Shown: positions 2,510 through 18,649 of the stretch, piece after piece
How the letters are laid out: each line of letters begins with the position of its first letter
Numbering within the stretch: the first letter of the stretch is position 1
DNA from: Escherichia phage 121Q
Strand: one strand, 5' to 3'
Length of the DNA stretch: 64,000 nt
Sequence record: NC_025447.1
The notes under the pieces: model-generated
Told to the model about the DNA's origin: nothing
The model's input: only the letters and a program-made list of their open reading frames with translations
Database searches by the model: none
Program-made: the position numbers and the translations under genes

Positions 2510-2701
2510 ATGTTGATTTATCAAGGTGATAATATTCGTGTTATGCAGCATCCCTACTTACAAATCTTTGATGTGCAGCAGTATATGGAAGGTGATGACC
2601 CAAGAACCTATGGTCGTAAGTATGATTACTTCACTGTAAAGCAGTGTAAAAATATTAACGAAGTACGACAATTAGTTCAAGAACTTCAAAACAAAGGTTG
2701 A
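2510..2701 (+). CDS. hypothetical small protein
   Basis: ATG at 2510 with SD AAGGA 8 nt upstream (track ORF starts 2456 inside upstream gene); stop lies inside terminator stem. Confidence 0.5.
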   Translation: MLIYQGDNIRVMQHPYLQIFDVQQYMEGDDPRTYGRKYDYFTVKQCKNINEVRQLVQELQNKG

Positions 2702-2720
2702 CTTCGGTCAGCCTTTTTTG
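2696..2720 (+). terminator. intrinsic terminator, GGTTGAC-UUCG-GTCAGCC hairpin plus T-run
   Basis: 7-bp GC-rich stem with UUCG tetraloop followed by TTTTTT. Confidence 0.75.
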
Positions 2721-2755
2721 TTATAATTCTCTTAATAAATTAGAGGATTTTAATT

Positions 2756-5935: not shown

Positions 5936-5962
5936 GGGTTGACTAAGGTCAGCCCTTTGTTG
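5936..5962 (+). terminator. intrinsic terminator (GGGTTGAC-n4-GTCAGCCC)
   Basis: hairpin followed by CTTTGTTG. Confidence 0.6.
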
Positions 5963-5997
5963 TATCATAACTTCTCAATATAACTGAGGTATCATAT

Positions 5998-8780: not shown

Positions 8781-8806
8781 GGGTTGACTTCGGTCAGCCT
8801 TTTTTG
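8781..8806 (+). terminator. intrinsic terminator, UUCG-loop hairpin
   Basis: GGGTTGACTTCGGTCAGCC then TTTTTTG. Confidence 0.8.
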
Positions 8807-8841
8807 TTATGATGTTGATATTAACTACAGAGGATAAAGTA

Positions 8842-12327: not shown

Positions 12328-12366
12328 TATTACGTGATATGTCACGTTAATTAAGTGAGGCGATAA

Positions 12367-12618
12367 ATGAAAATATTATTAGTTCTAATACTACTAATAG
12401 TTTTACCATTTACTTTAGTATCCCCTGGACTTGCATGGAATGTATTTGTGTACTTAGTATGTACTATTGTAGTAAATGGTATCTTGTTCTTAGTTCTATT
12501 CATAAATGGAATAGGACACGGTGGAGGATGGACCAGTACTGCTGATATTGTACATAAAACCACTATGTCTTTATTTGTAATGTGGAATTTGTTCTGGACT
12601 TGGTTTGTGTTCTTCTAA
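12367..12618 (+). CDS. membrane protein
   Basis: SD GTGAGG; hydrophobic TM-like segments. Confidence 0.6.
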   Translation: MKILLVLILLIVLPFTLVSPGLAWNVFVYLVCTIVVNGILFLVLFINGIGHGGGWTSTADIVHKTTMSLFVMWNLFWTWFVFF

Positions 12619-12626
12619 TTAAAAAT

Positions 12627-12998
12627 ATGAATATAGATTTGAAAGGTGCAACACGAACTGTTATCCTCATTGGGGAATATGCTATCAAGATTCCAACCTT
12701 TAAAAGTTGGAAGCTATTCTTAACAGGGATGATAGCTAACCTCAATGAACGTTCGTGGATGCAGTACTCCAATCGTAGTGATAGTAGTATCTGTCCTACG
12801 TTGTGGTCATCATGTACTGGACTAGTAACTGTACAGAAACGTTGTAAGCCAGTGCAACATAGGGGTTTATTTTGGGTGGAGTTGTGTGCATTAGCATCTA
12901 AATCAGAGTTGAGTACTGACTTCTTCTATTCAGATGCGAAGCCAGAAAACTTTGGGTATCTGGGTGGTAAGTTAGTTAAACTTGATTATGGAGATTAA
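12627..12998 (+). CDS. protein kinase-like protein (short)
   Basis: contains YAIK lysine motif, SDAKPEN catalytic-loop-like motif and KLDYG; start uncertain (GTG 12582 or ATG 12627). Confidence 0.5.
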   Translation: MNIDLKGATRTVILIGEYAIKIPTFKSWKLFLTGMIANLNERSWMQYSNRSDSSICPTLWSSCTGLVTVQKRCKPVQHRGLFWVELCALASKSELSTDFFYSDAKPENFGYLGGKLVKLDYGD

Positions 12999-12999
12999 T

Positions 13000-13269
13000 A
13001 TGTACGCACTGTATAATAAAGAAAAGAAACGATTTGCTAAGGTTGAAATTTCGATTGATACATTTGATATGTTGGAGTACTGTATTGTAACTGACCTATA
13101 TGCTAACTTGTATTACGTTCTTGATGACGTATCAGTACTGCAACGATTGCTTGAGAATTCCAAAAGTCAATGCCAGGGCATCCATGATGGTTCATCTTAT
13201 GAAACACCTGAGTGTTCCTACGGCTATCTGGACGGGTATGAGATTGTGAAGTTGGGGATCATTGAATAA
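13000..13269 (+). CDS. hypothetical protein, shares C-terminal motif with kinase-like family
   Basis: SD GGAG; C-terminal YGYLDGYEIVKLG resembles C-termini of 12627 and 55314 proteins. Confidence 0.5.
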   Translation: MYALYNKEKKRFAKVEISIDTFDMLEYCIVTDLYANLYYVLDDVSVLQRLLENSKSQCQGIHDGSSYETPECSYGYLDGYEIVKLGIIE

Positions 13270-13275
13270 AGAAAA

Positions 13276-13301
13276 GGGTTGACTTCGGTCAGCCCTTTTT
13301 G
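13276..13301 (+). terminator. intrinsic terminator, UUCG-loop hairpin
   Basis: GGGTTGACTTCGGTCAGCCC then TTTTT. Confidence 0.8.
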
Positions 13302-13308
13302 CTATAAT
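13279..13308 (+). promoter_or_regulatory. promoter embedded in terminator (TTGACT-N18-TATAAT)
   Basis: TTGACT is part of the terminator stem; TATAAT at 13303; SD GAGAGGA before denV. Confidence 0.5.
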
Positions 13309-13336
13309 TATTTCATCAAGACGAGAGGATGAATAC

Positions 13337-13852
13337 ATGACACGCATTAACTTAGTACACGTTAAAGAACTTGCTGACCAACATCTGATGGCTGAATATC
13401 GTGAACTCCCACGTGTATTTGGTGCTGTACAAAAACACGTTCAAGCACGTAAGCGTGTACGTGATTTCAAAATTAATAGTACTTATCTGTTAGGTTCAGG
13501 TCATGTGACATTCTTTTACGACAAGTTATTGTACTTACAGAAGCGTCATATTGATATTGTCAACGAATGTCTGCGTCGTGGTATGAAGATTCAAAACACT
13601 GAAGTAAACGACATTAGCGGCTTCCCTGCTGAGTTTTGTAATGACTACGTACCAACGGAGTCAGAGATTAAAATGTCTCGTGATCGTTTGATTGAGAAGC
13701 TCCAGATGAAGCCTACGTGGTATAAGTTTACTGATGTTGAATGTCCACAGTACGTTAAAGATATGCAGAACGTAAGTAGTAAGAACGAATCTAGTACTGA
13801 TATGTTCGACGAAATTGAAGAACAAATCAAAGATGAAATGAATAATTATTAA
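13337..13852 (+). CDS. denV: endonuclease V, pyrimidine-dimer DNA glycosylase/AP lyase
   Basis: N-terminal [30 protein letters not shown] and later [15 protein letters not shown] blocks match T4 endonuclease V; about 30-aa acidic C-terminal extension. Confidence 0.9.
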
Positions 13853-13890
13853 AGGAAAGGGTTGACTTCGGTTACACAAAGGAACATAAC

Positions 13891-14085
13891 ATGTTATTAG
13901 TATATTCAACGCGTTTCTGGATTTCTTTTATTGTACTATCGCTAATCGGCTTCGGTTTGAGTATACTCTTTTCGTGGGATGAATTGGGTACATGGTATTA
14001 TGAAGTCCCGTGGTACATGAAGATAGCTCCTTGTTATGCGGCATTGTTCGTGTCATTCCTTATTGTTGTCTTCAGCGAGGATTAG
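13891..14085 (+). CDS. small membrane protein
   Basis: SD AAAGGAA; two hydrophobic segments. Confidence 0.5.
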   Translation: MLLVYSTRFWISFIVLSLIGFGLSILFSWDELGTWYYEVPWYMKIAPCYAALFVSFLIVVFSED

Positions 14086-14136
14086 TTGATGTAGTATGTG
14101 CTACACCAAAGTATTTGGATATTTTAGATATAAACA

Positions 14137-14165
14137 TTGACACCTGTTATATCTTTCTGTATTAT
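14137..14165 (+). promoter_or_regulatory. sigma70-like promoter TTGACA-N17-TATTAT
   Basis: TTGACA at 14137, TATTAT at 14160, SD TGAGGA before ATG 14192. Confidence 0.5.
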
Positions 14166-14191
14166 GTACATCACCAAATGAGGAATACAAC

Positions 14192-14551
14192 ATGGCATCT
14201 TTAAGTGAAATCGCAGAATACAACCCACTAACAATCTCAACAATTCAACGTACAAAAACTTTTTATTTCCGTCCTGCTGATGGATGGAAACGTGGAATGA
14301 ATGGTGACTATCGAGTACTGGAAGATTCACTAATCGAGCGTATCAACTCTGAACTACAGAAGTATGAAGGTGTTAAAGTTGTGCGTTCAACTTCTCGTTA
14401 TTTTGAGTACTACATTGAGTCTTCAACTGTAAATGAAAACTCATCATTCTCGGTGGACAACACTGATATTCTTCGTAATGCAGTTGGTCTGTTATGCAAC
14501 ATTGCAGAAGAAATGGGCTTAACTATTACTACTATGAGTGAATTAGAATAA
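14192..14551 (+). CDS. hypothetical protein
   Basis: 119-aa ORF with SD and upstream promoter. Confidence 0.6.
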   Translation: MASLSEIAEYNPLTISTIQRTKTFYFRPADGWKRGMNGDYRVLEDSLIERINSELQKYEGVKVVRSTSRYFEYYIESSTVNENSSFSVDNTDILRNAVGLLCNIAEEMGLTITTMSELE

Positions 14552-14557
14552 CATAAA

Positions 14558-14583
14558 GGGTTGACTTCGGTCAGCCCTTTTTG
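14558..14583 (+). terminator. intrinsic terminator, UUCG-loop hairpin (doubles as -35 of next promoter)
   Basis: GGGTTGACTTCGGTCAGCCC-TTTTT followed by GCTATAAT. Confidence 0.8.
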
Positions 14584-14616
14584 CTATAATTATTTCATCA
14601 ACACAAGAGGTAACAA

Positions 14617-14856
14617 ATGAAACTATCTTTTATACGATTAGCTGAATTCTTCGGTACTGATATCATTACTTTACAACAAATTGCAGACAATACTTCATTA
14701 AGTATACAAGAAGTACTTGACTTAGATGTAATTCAGTGCGATAATACTTCAATCGATTTCAAAGAAGGTCTTGTCGAAAAAGATAAGATTCAGGCTAAGA
14801 TTAATGGTGCTGGACGGGTTCAGTACTGGAAAGGTATATTATCAAATTCAATTTGA
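14617..14856 (+). CDS. hypothetical protein
   Basis: 79-aa ORF, SD AGAGGT. Confidence 0.55.
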   Translation: MKLSFIRLAEFFGTDIITLQQIADNTSLSIQEVLDLDVIQCDNTSIDFKEGLVEKDKIQAKINGAGRVQYWKGILSNSI

Positions 14857-14899
14857 AATTTTTTGTTATTCATCATATGATAATGAATGGGAACCATAA

Positions 14900-16363
14900 A
14901 TGTATAAAGTATATCGTTCAATTGAAGTTGAAAATGCATTAAGCTTGGCAAAAAGTGAAGAAGCATTTAGAATTTCGTTATTCATTCTTCGTGAAAAGCA
15001 TCCACAATTGCCAATTCCTGATTCATTTGATCAATTGGAGCAGGATACTAATACAGAATGTGATGAAAGTCTGTTGGGATTAATTCGAAATCCAAAGACC
15101 AAAGCTAAGTTCTATCTTAAAATTTGTAAAATTTGTGCAAATGATGTTCAATTGCATGGTTTGGGTGTGTATATTATTGCACAATCGTCATATTTGAATT
15201 CAATAATTCCATGTGGTTGTAGTGAGATACCAAAATGGACTCGTTATCAATATATTATTCGAATAGAAAGAAAAATTTCAAAAACTGGAAAGAAATTATT
15301 ATCAATACCAACTGGTATAATTAAAAGTAATACATATAAACCAACTCTTGTATGTGAACATCACCCAGATGAACTCATGAACAGTGCAACTATAAATGGT
15401 ATTTTATTTGGTTCGAATGGTACAAATGATGGATGTGTTAAATGTGGGAATGAAAGAAAGAAACAGTATCATCGTGAAAGTAATAACGGATTGGAAAATC
15501 ACATTAACGAAATAATGAATACTGGTAAGTTTCATCCAAAGACCACGTTCAAGCGTAGTGATACAGTTAATGATTATGGGAGATTTAGTAAACTTGTATA
15601 CTCATGTCCAATTTGTGCAAACGATGAATATACAAAAAATGGTTTATGTACTGGTGAATTTGAGCAAGAAATGCACACACTCAAACAGGGGCATTTAAGT
15701 TGTCGCTGTACTGGCGGGTTTCGTTGGACAAAAGAACAGCGTGAATATCAAATTAAAAAAGAATTATGTAATCGCTCAACTGATGAAGTGATGTTTACAT
15801 TTATTGGCTGGGACGGTGAATACACTAATTCCCGTAGTGTGTTTTTATATTCACGTAGTGATAGTTCAATTCAACAAAAAATTAATATTGCAGATTTTTT
15901 CAGTTTTGAATATGGTTTTTCAATGTATAATGAGTACGGGTTTAAGAAAAACAAACCTACACGTTCATATATGAACGTTGATCAAACAAACGAATCGGAT
16001 AAATTCGGAATAACCCAACAGGGTAACAGTATCAAACCCCGACTTAAAAAAATTAACAAATCTTTTTTAGAAGAGTATGGTGTTGATAATTTTTGGACTA
16101 ATGTATTAGTTATTTTTTTTCACACCGAAGAAGGGGGATTTTTGGCATCGGAGTTGGAAACACAAGTCCATACTGTTGCATTGTGTGGAAAACCACATAA
16201 AAATATTGGCTATTATAAAAGAGGTGATGGTTATACTGAAACATACAACAACATACATCGTCAAAATGTAATTGAAGTAATAAAACAATTCTTAGCCAAA
16301 CATGAAGGTGAGTACATTATTGAACGTGATATTAATGGTATTTTTGGTGAAGTAATTTTATAA
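14900..16363 (+). CDS. Cys-rich hypothetical protein (487 aa) with duplicated C-x2-C-A-N-D module
   Basis: long ORF; two copies of CxICAND...C(x)C zinc-binding-like module; no GIY-YIG or HNH motif seen. Confidence 0.7.
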   Translation: MYKVYRSIEVENALSLAKSEEAFRISLFILREKHPQLPIPDSFDQLEQDTNTECDESLLGLIRNPKTKAKFYLKICKICANDVQLHGLGVYIIAQSSYLNSIIPCGCSEIPKWTRYQYIIRIERKISKTGKKLLSIPTGIIKSNTYKPTLVCEHHPDELMNSATINGILFGSNGTNDGCVKCGNERKKQYHRESNNGLENHINEIMNTGKFHPKTTFKRSDTVNDYGRFSKLVYSCPICANDEYTKNGLCTGEFEQEMHTLKQGHLSCRCTGGFRWTKEQREYQIKKELCNRSTDEVMFTFIGWDGEYTNSRSVFLYSRSDSSIQQKINIADFFSFEYGFSMYNEYGFKKNKPTRSYMNVDQTNESDKFGITQQGNSIKPRLKKINKSFLEEYGVDNFWTNVLVIFFHTEEGGFLASELETQVHTVALCGKPHKNIGYYKRGDGYTETYNNIHRQNVIEVIKQFLAKHEGEYIIERDINGIFGEVIL

Positions 16364-16383
16364 AATAAAAGAGGTTAATTAAA

Positions 16384-16710
16384 ATGAAAAAGTTAATGTT
16401 AGTTATGTTAATGTGTTTATCAACAACAGTGAATGCAAAAAATGAATCATCAACTACTTGTAAATCTTCAAAAACTGATACGATTTATCAACTGTATTTG
16501 GATGTTTCAACAAAAACTGCTAAAATTGATGGAAAGAAATTTATGTTCGAAAGTCAAGAAGTTTTTAAAGACGGGAGTGGTTCATATACTATTTTTTCAA
16601 ATGATAAATTAAATCAAAAATTAAAAGTTTTTGTTATAAAACCAAATAAGATAAAATATATAATTACCTATAATGGTAAAAATATTGATATGGGTAATTG
16701 TGTGTATTAA
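16384..16710 (+). CDS. secreted small protein, Cys-pair family
   Basis: signal peptide, Cys after signal, Cys 3 aa from end. Confidence 0.65.
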   Translation: MKKLMLVMLMCLSTTVNAKNESSTTCKSSKTDTIYQLYLDVSTKTAKIDGKKFMFESQEVFKDGSGSYTIFSNDKLNQKLKVFVIKPNKIKYIITYNGKNIDMGNCVY

Positions 16711-16725
16711 ATATGTTTATAAAAA

Positions 16726-16751
16726 GGGTTGACTTCGGTCAGCCCTTTTTG
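16726..16751 (+). terminator. intrinsic terminator, UUCG-loop hairpin
   Basis: GGGTTGACTTCGGTCAGCCC-TTTTT, followed by GCTATAAT. Confidence 0.8.
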
Positions 16752-16786
16752 CTATAATTATTTCATCAACTGATGAGGATAACGAA

Positions 16787-17557
16787 ATGACCAGAGAAGC
16801 ACGCAGCATTCAAATTCAGAAAAACTTCAACTCCATGATGGTTGCTCTTGAGTGTTTGCTCGATGATAGCAGTACTGTAAAAAGTATGGTTGTCAGTGGT
16901 GCTCCTGGTGTTGGCAAGACTTACACCCTGTCTAAACGCCTCCAGAAAGCTCATGACGCAGCAGAATGGAACGTAGCTACCATCAGTGGTAAAATGACTA
17001 CTCTGGCTCTGTACGAAGTTCTGTACAAGAATCGTCATAGCACCAACGTATTAGTACTGGACGATATGGACAGTATTTTTGATTCTGAAGACGGTATGAA
17101 CCTGCTCAAAGCAGTACTGGATAGTGGTAAGCGTACCGTGTCTTATATGACTAGCTCTAAGTACTTGAGCACTAACGGAATTCCTAATAGCTTTGATTTT
17201 AATGGTCGCATCGTATTCATTACTAACAAAGATTTAGCGTTAGATGCTAAAGCTAAAACTAAAATGTCTGCTCATTATGCTGCTCTTATGTCTCGTTCTG
17301 TGTACGTGGATTTACAGATTCAGACTAAAAGTGATATCATGATTCATATTGAGAACGTGATGAATCAGACTAACATTTTAGAATCTAAGGGTATTAACCG
17401 TAATGGTAGTAAAGCAATTCTGAACTGGATGTTGAAGCACGAAGATTCTCTTCGTTCACCTTCACTGCGTATGCCACTGTTGATTTCGGCAGTATATAAC
17501 AACAACCCATACGATTGGGAAGAACAGTGCGAAAACTTGTTCCTTGAGAAAATTTAA
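16787..17557 (+). CDS. P-loop NTPase (AAA-like ATPase)
   Basis: Walker A GAPGVGKT and Walker B-like VLVLDD in a 256-aa ORF. Confidence 0.8.
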   Translation: MTREARSIQIQKNFNSMMVALECLLDDSSTVKSMVVSGAPGVGKTYTLSKRLQKAHDAAEWNVATISGKMTTLALYEVLYKNRHSTNVLVLDDMDSIFDSEDGMNLLKAVLDSGKRTVSYMTSSKYLSTNGIPNSFDFNGRIVFITNKDLALDAKAKTKMSAHYAALMSRSVYVDLQIQTKSDIMIHIENVMNQTNILESKGINRNGSKAILNWMLKHEDSLRSPSLRMPLLISAVYNNNPYDWEEQCENLFLEKI

Positions 17558-17622
17558 TTCAATATTGACAGTACTAACAACGTGTAGTACTATAACAAAA
17601 GTTTAATCACTGGAGACACTCA

Positions 17623-17964
17623 ATGCGTGAGTTTTTTGAATCTAATATAATGCTTGGTATCACACTGATATACATGTTTGTATTCTTGTTTTATCATTCA
17701 ATTGTAATTAGTCTTTGGTATTTTAAAAGGAAAGTTGTTTTTAAATTGTATTCATATAATAATGTATTCTTGGTTGTATATAGCATTATACAAGGTGGAT
17801 TTATTTTATTTGGTGTGATGACATATGTGATTTACATGTTACAAATTGATAACACACCACACATTACACAATATGTTGTGTTTTCAGGACTAATCGTCTG
17901 GTTATTGGTGTGTACTATGTACTTTATTATTAAAGCTCGTGATAACTTTAAATGGGGATTCTAA
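17623..17964 (+). CDS. membrane protein, cluster-2 paralog
   Basis: hydrophobic; TLIYMFVFLFYH..WYFKRK motif shared with next gene. Confidence 0.6.
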   Translation: MREFFESNIMLGITLIYMFVFLFYHSIVISLWYFKRKVVFKLYSYNNVFLVVYSIIQGGFILFGVMTYVIYMLQIDNTPHITQYVVFSGLIVWLLVCTMYFIIKARDNFKWGF

Positions 17965-18302
17965 TGTTAGAATTTTTTAAATCAGATACAATGATTAGTA
18001 TTACTTTGATTTATCTTTTTGGTTTTTTCTTTTATCATGCACTAGTTGTAGTACTATGGTATTTTAAAAAGAAAATTGTTTTTAAACTGTATCCAGTGAG
18101 GAATTCATCACTAGTTCTTTACACACTTGTTCAAGGTTTGTTTGCAATTGTTGGTCTTATGGCACACTTAATTTATTGTGCTAATCCTCACTTGAACTCA
18201 ATCTCACAATATATTGTATTCTTTGGATTGTTCATTTGGTTAGTTGCATACTTAATCCATCTCATTATTCATGGTAGAGATAAAATTCGCGGAGACTTCT
18301 AA
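17952..18302 (+). CDS. membrane protein, cluster-2 paralog
   Basis: close paralog of 17623 gene. Confidence 0.6.
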   Translation: MGILMLEFFKSDTMISITLIYLFGFFFYHALVVVLWYFKKKIVFKLYPVRNSSLVLYTLVQGLFAIVGLMAHLIYCANPHLNSISQYIVFFGLFIWLVAYLIHLIIHGRDKIRGDF

Positions 18303-18649
18303 TGTTTGAAGCTTATCTTGAGTTTTTAAGGAGTAGTCCAGTTGCACATTCACTTGCAGGGATTATTCTAACAACTTATGTATCATTTTGGGTAGTTATG
18401 TTTCTAGGATGGTATTTTAAACGACAATTCTATAAACGTAATGGTGAAGATTTTATGAATTCTGTCATTAATCAATCGTTGTTTGCATCAACATTGATTG
18501 CATGTATTGTAGCAACACTCACAGGAAAGGTACTACCAGCTTTTTCCGCAGTTTACGGCACACTTGGGATGATATGTTTAACTTTTATATTGACCATTAA
18601 AATTTGTTGTGTTATGATTGAACTTCGAAATAAGATACCGGAGGAATGA
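18302..18649 (+). CDS. membrane protein, cluster-2 paralog
   Basis: hydrophobic; WYFKRQ motif; ends NKIPEE like cluster-1 tails. Confidence 0.6.
   Translation: MFEAYLEFLRSSPVAHSLAGIILTTYVSFWVVMFLGWYFKRQFYKRNGEDFMNSVINQSLFASTLIACIVATLTGKVLPAFSAVYGTLGMICLTFILTIKICCVMIELRNKIPEE

Follow-up and report, generated by a model that had tools for sequence, protein, structure and literature searches.

The 64,000-nucleotide (nt) stretch of DNA analysed here, referred to below as the window and numbered from its first letter, derives from the genome of Escherichia phage 121Q (NC_025447.1). One of its genes (14900..16363) is a complete open reading frame (ORF) with an ATG start that encodes a cysteine-rich protein of 487 amino acids (aa), a putative free-standing homing-type endonuclease. 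Our analyses indicate that this protein is probably a member of the phage T5orf172/GIY-YIG lineage of such enzymes, in which tandem zinc-finger units are joined to a cutting domain with the GIY-YIG fold. The domain composition and fold of the protein, its conserved metal ligands and catalytic-type residues, the presence/absence polymorphism of its gene and the mosaic boundaries around that gene are established below. All ORF coordinates are given on the plus strand, on which the domains and repeated cassettes described here also lie.

Tandem zinc-finger units in the N-terminal part of the protein

Eight of the 15 cysteines in the protein form two copies of one motif. The first copy is C76-x2-C79...C105-x-C107 (CKICAND...CGC), with 25 residues between the cysteine pairs, and the second is C236-x2-C239...C268-x-C270 (CPICAND...CRC), with 28. 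An initial annotation had described this duplicated module in an ORF whose bounds were exact, and the duplication is real. The local BLOSUM62 score of the two protein halves is 51, which is higher than that of any of 500 shuffled comparisons (27.7 ± 4.7; maximum 46), and their resemblance is not due to chance. The duplication is also visible in the DNA, where the CxxCAND codons at 15125-15146 and 15605-15626 share 86% identity over 22 nt at a distance of 480 nt (160 codons).

Both copies match the CapR homology domain of Pfam (PF21817; gathering threshold 24.2 bits), to which the whole protein aligns in three stretches with a combined 82.4 bits (E 2.6e-23). In piecewise scans, residues ~60-130 score 33.6 bits and residues ~203-290 score 47.8 bits, with a third, sub-threshold match of 17.5 bits at residues ~295-340. 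No Pfam match was obtained by this approach for residues 1-69, 124-194 or 343-487. CapR is known to bind DNA, and Cys-to-Ser mutants evaluated by electrophoretic mobility shift assays established that the cysteines of its CxxC-(24-26)-CxC pattern are needed for binding (Netter et al. 2021, PMC8096241). The same study found the domain and its motif in putative homing endonucleases of phage ICP1 that carry T5orf172 domains. The spacing in repeat 1 of the 121Q protein is within the published range, and that in repeat 2 is slightly longer. Column counts reveal that the eight motif cysteines are kept in essentially all homologues bearing a CapR domain, and those of repeat 2 are present in 15 of 15 domain-bearing homologues.

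An alignment with 18 homologues (alignment A3), combined with column counts, indicates that the repeating unit spans ~160 residues. Each unit opens with a CapR finger (CxxC...CxC) and then a conserved helix (WTRYQYIIRIERK in unit 1, WTKEQREYQIKK in unit 2), which together make up its first half. The second half is zinc-ribbon-like, with the consensus LxC...FLxGxGCPxC. In homologues this second-half segment is classified as DUF723 or DUF4379 by precomputed Pfam assignments, and no direct Pfam match to it is found in the 487-aa protein.

These units are preceded by an N-terminal extension (residues 1-65; 14900..15094) that has no Pfam match and no family assignment and is modelled with a predicted local distance difference test score (pLDDT) of 36-62; tblastn matches in Klebsiella jumbo-phage records begin as early as residues 5-9. 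CapR homology domain 1 (residues ~66-130; 15095..15289) carries the putative zinc ligands C76, C79, C105 and C107 and then a helix at 115-127. It is followed by an inter-repeat segment (residues 131-200; 15290..15499) with a probable third zinc site, C152-x2-H155...C179-x2-C182. CapR homology domain 2 (residues 203-292; 15506..15775) includes the putative ligands C236, C239, C268 and C270, a fifth conserved cysteine (C250) and the WTKEQREYQIKK helix, and is followed in turn by a degenerate copy of the inter-repeat segment (residues 295-342; 15782..15925), where the sub-threshold CapR match lies and from which all cysteines have been lost. Column conservation supports the four residues C152, H155, C179 and C182 that are retained in the second half of unit 1. 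In the second half of unit 2, homologues keep C...CxxC, whereas the 487-aa protein has none of these cysteines. Because the ribbon ligands are kept in unit 1 and gone in unit 2, three zinc sites are predicted for the protein. Neither the third probable metal site nor the degenerate segment of unit 2 had been noticed in the initial annotation.

A full-length AlphaFold2 model gives both CapR units the same topology with a pLDDT of 83-94 (83-87 for repeat 1, mostly >90 for repeat 2). The predicted template modelling score (pTM) of this model is 0.39, such that the placement of the domains relative to each other is undefined.

A diverged C-terminal nuclease domain with the GIY-YIG fold

The protein matches the ‘endonuclease’ family phrog_681 (PHROGs) across its full 487 aa (E 1.2e-77), and its C-terminal domain (residues 343-487; 15926..16360) has the characteristics of a T5orf172-like nuclease. 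When modelled separately from a 9-sequence alignment (pLDDT 86.8, pTM 0.84), this domain adopts the element order beta-beta-alpha-beta-alpha...alpha, as in the GIY-YIG fold. In fold comparisons it scores highest against Slx1 (8.0 for both 6seh_C and 7cq2_A) and At-HIGLE (7wme_A; 7.8), followed by EF2693 and the catalytic domain of I-TevI (1ln0), each at 4.6, the GIY-YIG restriction enzyme PD-T4-3 (4.4), Eco29kI (4.1) and UvrC (3.3). Slx1 is also top-ranked when the full-length model is searched with Foldseek.

Conserved residues of the domain are Y357, K368-F-G370, R381, E420, H424 and E447, together with the tail EHEGEYIIERDINGIFGEVIL, which is strongly conserved. G370, R381, E420 and E447 are invariant in 19 of 19 aligned proteins. 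Among the same proteins, Y or V is found at position 357 and mainly K at position 368, and in a narrower family (alignment A4) Y357 is invariant. Y357, K368/G370, R381, E420 and E447 reside in the expected elements of the GIY-YIG fold, and we infer that they are equivalent to Y6, Y17, R27 and E75 of I-TevI. The metal-ligand glutamate of the nuclease domain would then be E420 or E447.

The initial annotation had proposed a zinc-binding, nucleic-acid-binding or nuclease-associated protein that lacks GIY-YIG and HNH motifs and is probably not a typical T4 homing endonuclease. Its first part was right. An arrangement of the cysteines for metal coordination is predicted indirectly, from membership in the CapR family, the conservation of these residues and the published mutagenesis of CapR. 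The GIY-YIG fold of residues 343-487 had been overlooked. An HNH endonuclease identity is rejected, as the initial annotation had it, since no HNH family is among the Pfam matches. The T4 frame of reference must be given up as well: the window belongs to an Asteriusvirus, and it has a T4-like look because a denV homologue is present at 13337-13852.

T5orf172 is a subfamily of GIY-YIG nucleases whose catalytic glutamate has been demonstrated in one case, Odn (Barth et al. 2023, PMC10448857). Alignment A5 contains seven homologue C-termini, of which six pass the Pfam T5orf172 model. For the 487-aa protein, membership at the sequence level is a transitive link only, which runs through a sister group composed of P0005, P0008, P0018, P0019 and phAPEC6 gp019. 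Alignment of the C-terminal family to this group with hhalign yields E 1e-6 and 91% probability over 96 columns, and its member P0018 scores 26.9 bits against PF10544, for which the cut-off is 20 bits. Another group reaches 20 bits against the Pfam GIY-YIG model. The C-terminal family is narrow, with 8 representatives at E ≤0.001 in an exhaustive search of 1.84 billion representatives. A search of 5.8 billion proteins with the C-terminal alignment profile returned one protein and no bridge to T5orf172. We conclude that the domain belongs to the GIY-YIG nuclease superfamily, as a diverged sub-branch on the T5orf172 side. As this example illustrates, GIY-YIG nucleases of phages are under-counted when motif or Pfam searches are used alone.

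Homologues and occupancy of the locus in sister phages

The closest homologue of the protein, at 99.2% identity, is encoded by Escherichia phage UB (AXC36565.1; UniProt A0A2Z5H914, named ‘CapR homology domain-containing protein’), and UB is the only match above 80% identity among 50,697 phage records. Homologues were identified by tblastn in 321 phage records, including 135 from Vibrio and 119 from Escherichia phages. The full-length model is matched at E ≤0.001 by 110 viral models, among them those of RaK2 and of proteins annotated as T5-Orf172. No paralogue was found within the window, searches of NCBIfam and PADLOC with the 487-aa protein gave no match, and Protein Data Bank sequence searches with the protein or its C-terminal profile gave chance-level matches only.

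Across its entire length, the region at 13300-17600 shares 97.6% identity with phage UB (Asteriusvirus, PBECO4 species, 353-kb genome), and it matches ~30 other Escherichia jumbo phages in part. Comparison of these phages reveals that the gene occupies a variable slot. In SP27 the slot is empty, and a 119-aa gene is followed after 67 nt by a gene for an AAA+ ATPase; EC.P1 is also empty and lacks the 119-aa gene too. The same 487-aa gene is present in UB, whereas the PBECO4 protein (gp306; 379 aa) joins a different N-terminal part to the same nuclease domain (61% identity). Phage phAPEC6 carries a 628-aa phrog_681 protein, and E9.1 carries two nuclease genes. The occupants in G17, EcMJ and SHEFM2K have a different C-terminal nuclease type (phrog_9084/559), which by eye looks PD-(D/E)xK-like. 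The eight genomes with an occupied slot (the window, UB, G17, PBECO4, phAPEC6, SHEFM2K, EcMJ and E9.1) thus hold at least six different nuclease-type genes, and the occupant differs from that of the window in six of the seven others. Presence/absence polymorphism of this kind, at one locus among close relatives, is a hallmark of homing endonuclease genes.

Layout of the inserted module and its flanking cassettes

The nuclease gene is the middle member of a module that also includes a 79-aa ORF and a 108-aa ORF, and that is situated between two 56-nt cassettes. The left cassette (D1; 14555..14610) is composed of a GC stem with a UUCG loop (GGGTTGAC-TTCG-GTCAGCCC), a T run, a -35 element (TTGACT) within the stem and, 18 nt downstream of this element, the extended -10 element TGCTATAAT. 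A promoter scan of this cassette gives 11/12. The right cassette (16723..16778) is 95% identical to the left copy. The cassette core, TTGACTTCGGTCAGCCCTTTTTGCTATAAT, occurs six times on one strand of the window (2698-2727, 5939-5968, 8784-8813, 13279-13308, 14561-14590 and 16729-16758), compared with 0.03 occurrences expected by chance. The same sites are annotated as terminators in phage G17, and a scan for intrinsic terminators did not flag the hairpin; we read the cassette as a putative terminator from its sequence and the G17 annotation. The left cassette bounds the inserted module and probably drives its transcription. In sister phages, modules bounded by such cassettes are kept or missing as a whole, with two missing from EC.P1 and one from SP27.

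The 79-aa ORF (phrog_34150; 14617..14856) resides upstream of the nuclease gene in every occupied slot examined (in UB, G17, PBECO4, phAPEC6, SHEFM2K, EcMJ and E9.1 as well as here) and is absent from the empty slots of SP27 and EC.P1. The window and UB copies of this ORF share 92% identity, compared with 99% for the neighbouring nuclease gene. In other phages its end overlaps the start of the nuclease gene, whereas here the two are separated by a 43-nt spacer (14857..14899) at the left recombination junction. The spacer holds TCAATTTGAA, which aligns with the overlapping stop/start TAATGTTTGAA of phages with other nucleases and is possibly a remnant of that overlapping start. The 108-aa ORF (16384..16710) has a signal-peptide-like N-terminus (MKKLMLVMLMCLSTTVNA) and no family match. 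It accompanies the nuclease gene in UB, and PBECO4 has homologous DNA, in which the annotation shows a 60-aa ORF only.

Recombination boundaries and divergence of the flanks

Homology to phages with other nucleases stops at 14834-14841, ~230 nt beyond the left cassette and in the final codons of the 79-aa ORF, and homology to all related phages restarts at 16722, at the right cassette. In the comparison with PBECO4, DNA identity is ~0.5-0.6 at 15950-16200 and >0.9 from 16283 onward. This climb toward the 3ʹ end places an exchange boundary within the nuclease gene.

The window and UB differ by 0-3 mismatches per 150 nt across the nuclease gene and the 108-aa ORF. The immediate flanks are less conserved, with 10, 18 and 5 mismatches per 150 nt on the left (14461-14910) and 12, 9, 8, 7 and 5 on the right (16711-17457), after which the count returns to 0-4. 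A gene that is more conserved than its immediate flanks carries the mosaic signature of co-conversion, and such divergence would be expected from repair-type recombination that exchanges the nuclease gene together with its flanks.

Directly downstream of the slot is the AAA+ ATPase gene (phrog_1250; 16787-17557), which has weak Orc1/Cdc6- and Hda-like matches and is annotated as ‘clamp loader’ in one phage. The window and UB alleles of this gene are separated by 30 synonymous and 1 non-synonymous codon differences, compared with 7 and 4 for the nuclease gene. The AAA+ gene is therefore a distinct allele under strong purifying selection, and it is a candidate for the site of the nuclease target or of the co-conversion tract.

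Mechanism and alternative explanations

The two tandem units, each formed by a CapR-type Cys4 finger with its recognition helix and a small zinc-ribbon-like segment that is intact in unit 1 but has degenerated in unit 2, would together read an extended asymmetric DNA site, near which the C-terminal GIY-YIG-fold domain would cut. In a co-infection, the enzyme would be expected to cut the slot region of genomes that lack its gene. Repair of the cut genome by recombination, with the nuclease-bearing genome as template, would then introduce the gene along with its adjacent flanks and so allow the gene to spread into slots that are nuclease-less or differently occupied.

Several observations weigh against this reading. 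Pfam GIY-YIG, T5orf172 (PF10544) and MUG113 give no match at E ≤10, either to the whole protein or to residues 343-487. A hidden Markov model built from bona fide T5orf172-positive homologue C-termini scores the 487-aa protein at ~0 bits (0.9), and direct hhalign comparisons of the C-terminal family with T5orf172 C-termini are weak (E 0.013 and 0.24). The tyrosine of ‘YIG’ is replaced by lysine, as it also is in aligned homologues that pass Pfam T5orf172. DNA cleavage by the protein and its target site are inferred, as are zinc binding and homing itself. Moreover, the 56-nt direct repeats that flank the module, of which the window holds six, provide another route for gain and loss of the module, since cassette-to-cassette recombination could account for both with no nuclease involved.

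A nuclease that is retained because it benefits the phage in conflicts with competing phages, satellites or host DNA, rather than for homing, is an unlikely explanation, although one with precedent. Odn of ICP1 is a T5orf172 nuclease directed against PLE, and nucleases of this type have been co-opted for anti-satellite defence (PMC10448857). The rarity of the window-type allele, with its single close match in UB, and the alternation of nucleases at one slot would also fit a diversifying conflict. However, the PADLOC and NCBIfam searches gave no match, and the DNA-binding part is of the ordinary CapR type and not borrowed from a target replicon, such as RepA_N. Divergence that peaks exactly at the gene edges is instead what repair-mediated co-conversion predicts. 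In practice, this role and homing overlap via marker exclusion.

It is quite improbable that the module moves solely by homologous recombination between its cassettes, with the nuclease performing an unrelated housekeeping role in DNA metabolism. The nuclease gene does reside two gene modules downstream of denV, and direct repeats of 95% identity bound its module. Neighbouring cassette-bounded modules come and go as units (the 119-aa gene is missing from EC.P1 as well), and PeSL cassettes mediate such shuffling in T4-like phages (PMC4122927). However, homology breaks at 14834-14841 and, for PBECO4, inside the nuclease gene; both breaks are outside the cassettes, and exchanges are therefore not confined to them. 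Nor would random cargo be expected to place a different nuclease-type gene in six of seven occupied slots. Cassette recombination and nuclease-driven transfer can nonetheless act together.

The least probable alternative, and a very doubtful one, is a domesticated regulator whose zinc-finger array binds a phage promoter or operator and whose C-terminal domain would no longer cut DNA: although CapR is a domesticated repressor from the same family (PMC8096241) that acts on the ICP1 capsid operon, I-TevI represses its own promoter, the C-terminal domain here is too diverged for Pfam nuclease models and the gene adjoins strong consensus promoters, CapR has a DNA-binding domain only (Pfam’s description), whereas this protein keeps a confidently predicted nuclease-type domain with G370, R381, E420 and E447 invariant across 19 homologues and Y357 invariant in the narrower family, at a locus that exhibits the presence/absence and swapping of mobile nuclease genes, unlike a fixed regulator.

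The homing-type endonuclease is thus the explanation we prefer. A more far-reaching proposal, to which we assign little probability, is that the slot is a dedicated ‘nuclease-swap’ locus. The 79-aa protein (phrog_34150) would then be a functional partner or homing target common to unrelated nuclease classes (GIY-YIG/T5orf172-like here, and the phrog_9084/phrog_559 type in G17, EcMJ and SHEFM2K), and the C-terminal domain, marked by the invariant tail EHEGEYIIERDINGIFGEVIL, would represent a GIY-YIG clade of its own, hitherto unclassified and acting in a distinct way.

Other variable features near the slot

A second variable position is located upstream of denV. An ‘HNH endonuclease’ gene or fragment is found there in UB (L001 1789-1983) and EcMJ (L007 3099-3512), and the matching part of the window (~12982-13269) holds an unrelated 95-aa ORF. 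These observations suggest that the denV region has more than one nuclease slot. Further upstream, a 138-aa ORF (12582-12998) ends with ...DAKPENFGYLGGKLVKLDYGD, which resembles a protein-kinase catalytic loop with a DFG-like motif, and the sequence at 12330-12620 is not the same in the window as in UB or PBECO4. On the other side of the slot, 17623-20031 is occupied by a tandem array of small paralogous genes for predicted membrane proteins (113, 116, 115, 112, 59, 122 and 141 aa). Similarity is clear between the first two genes (neighbours share ~77% DNA identity), and the copy number varies among sister phages.

Comparison with known systems

The architecture described here is a common one. 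CapR, DUF723 or DUF4379 zinc fingers, often repeated, are present in 200 of 229 T5orf172 genes (PMC10448857, in which DUF4379 also appears as DUF4397 in places and as DUF4379 in one legend). The 487-aa protein is ordinary because its family has already been described; what is new is a further member whose diverged nuclease domain is its only unusual feature. Its annotation should be changed from a hypothetical or generic cysteine-rich protein to a putative CapR-zinc-finger/GIY-YIG (T5orf172-like) homing-type endonuclease; beyond this correction the finding has little significance.

The resemblance to Slx1 and At-HIGLE is one of fold only (14-15% sequence identity). These proteins are eukaryotic structure-specific repair or processing nucleases that have a RING/PHD partner domain and no homing role. 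Compared with I-TevI and the Seg proteins of T4, the domain order is reversed, since the catalytic domain of I-TevI is N-terminal. I-TevI binds DNA through a helix-turn-helix and has its zinc finger in the linker, and of the two canonical GIY...YIG tyrosines the 487-aa protein has one, Y357, with K368 in place of the second.

The cassettes parallel the PeSL cassettes of T4-like phages (Arbiol 2010, PMC2839356; Comeau 2014, PMC4122927), in which a short repeated terminator stem-loop and an early-type promoter likewise flank gene modules that are gained or lost. Those described here are found in an Asteriusvirus and have a sequence of their own, and a role for them in recombination is proposed by analogy.

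PLE CapR (PMC8096241) belongs to the same DNA-binding family (PF21817), and its four cysteines are needed for DNA binding. It is a single-domain repressor encoded by a satellite and lacking a nuclease domain (Pfam’s description), whereas the phage-encoded protein studied here combines two copies of the domain with a nuclease-type domain.

The closest parallels are the T5orf172 homing genes of ICP1 and other vibriophages that carry CapR-type domains (for example, ICP1 gp174 and gp165; PMC10448857). They share the N-terminal repeated CxxC...CxC motif and the C-terminal GIY-YIG-superfamily domain, and they are likewise free-standing genes with intragenic repeats and shuffled domains at boundaries of exchange between related phages. 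The 121Q protein differs in having a narrow, diverged nuclease domain with no direct Pfam T5orf172 match, an additional 65-residue N-terminal extension and a second motif spacing of 28 rather than 24-26, and in being encoded by an E. coli jumbo phage (Asteriusvirus). Domain shuffling, turnover of nuclease classes at one position and gene placement at the boundaries of genetic exchange were all described for the vibriophage genes (PMC10448857). The slot examined here provides a clean natural example of these ideas from E. coli jumbo phages, in which different DNA-binding arrays are joined to the same nuclease domain at one locus, nuclease classes replace each other in one slot and sequence divergence peaks exactly at the edges of the nuclease gene.

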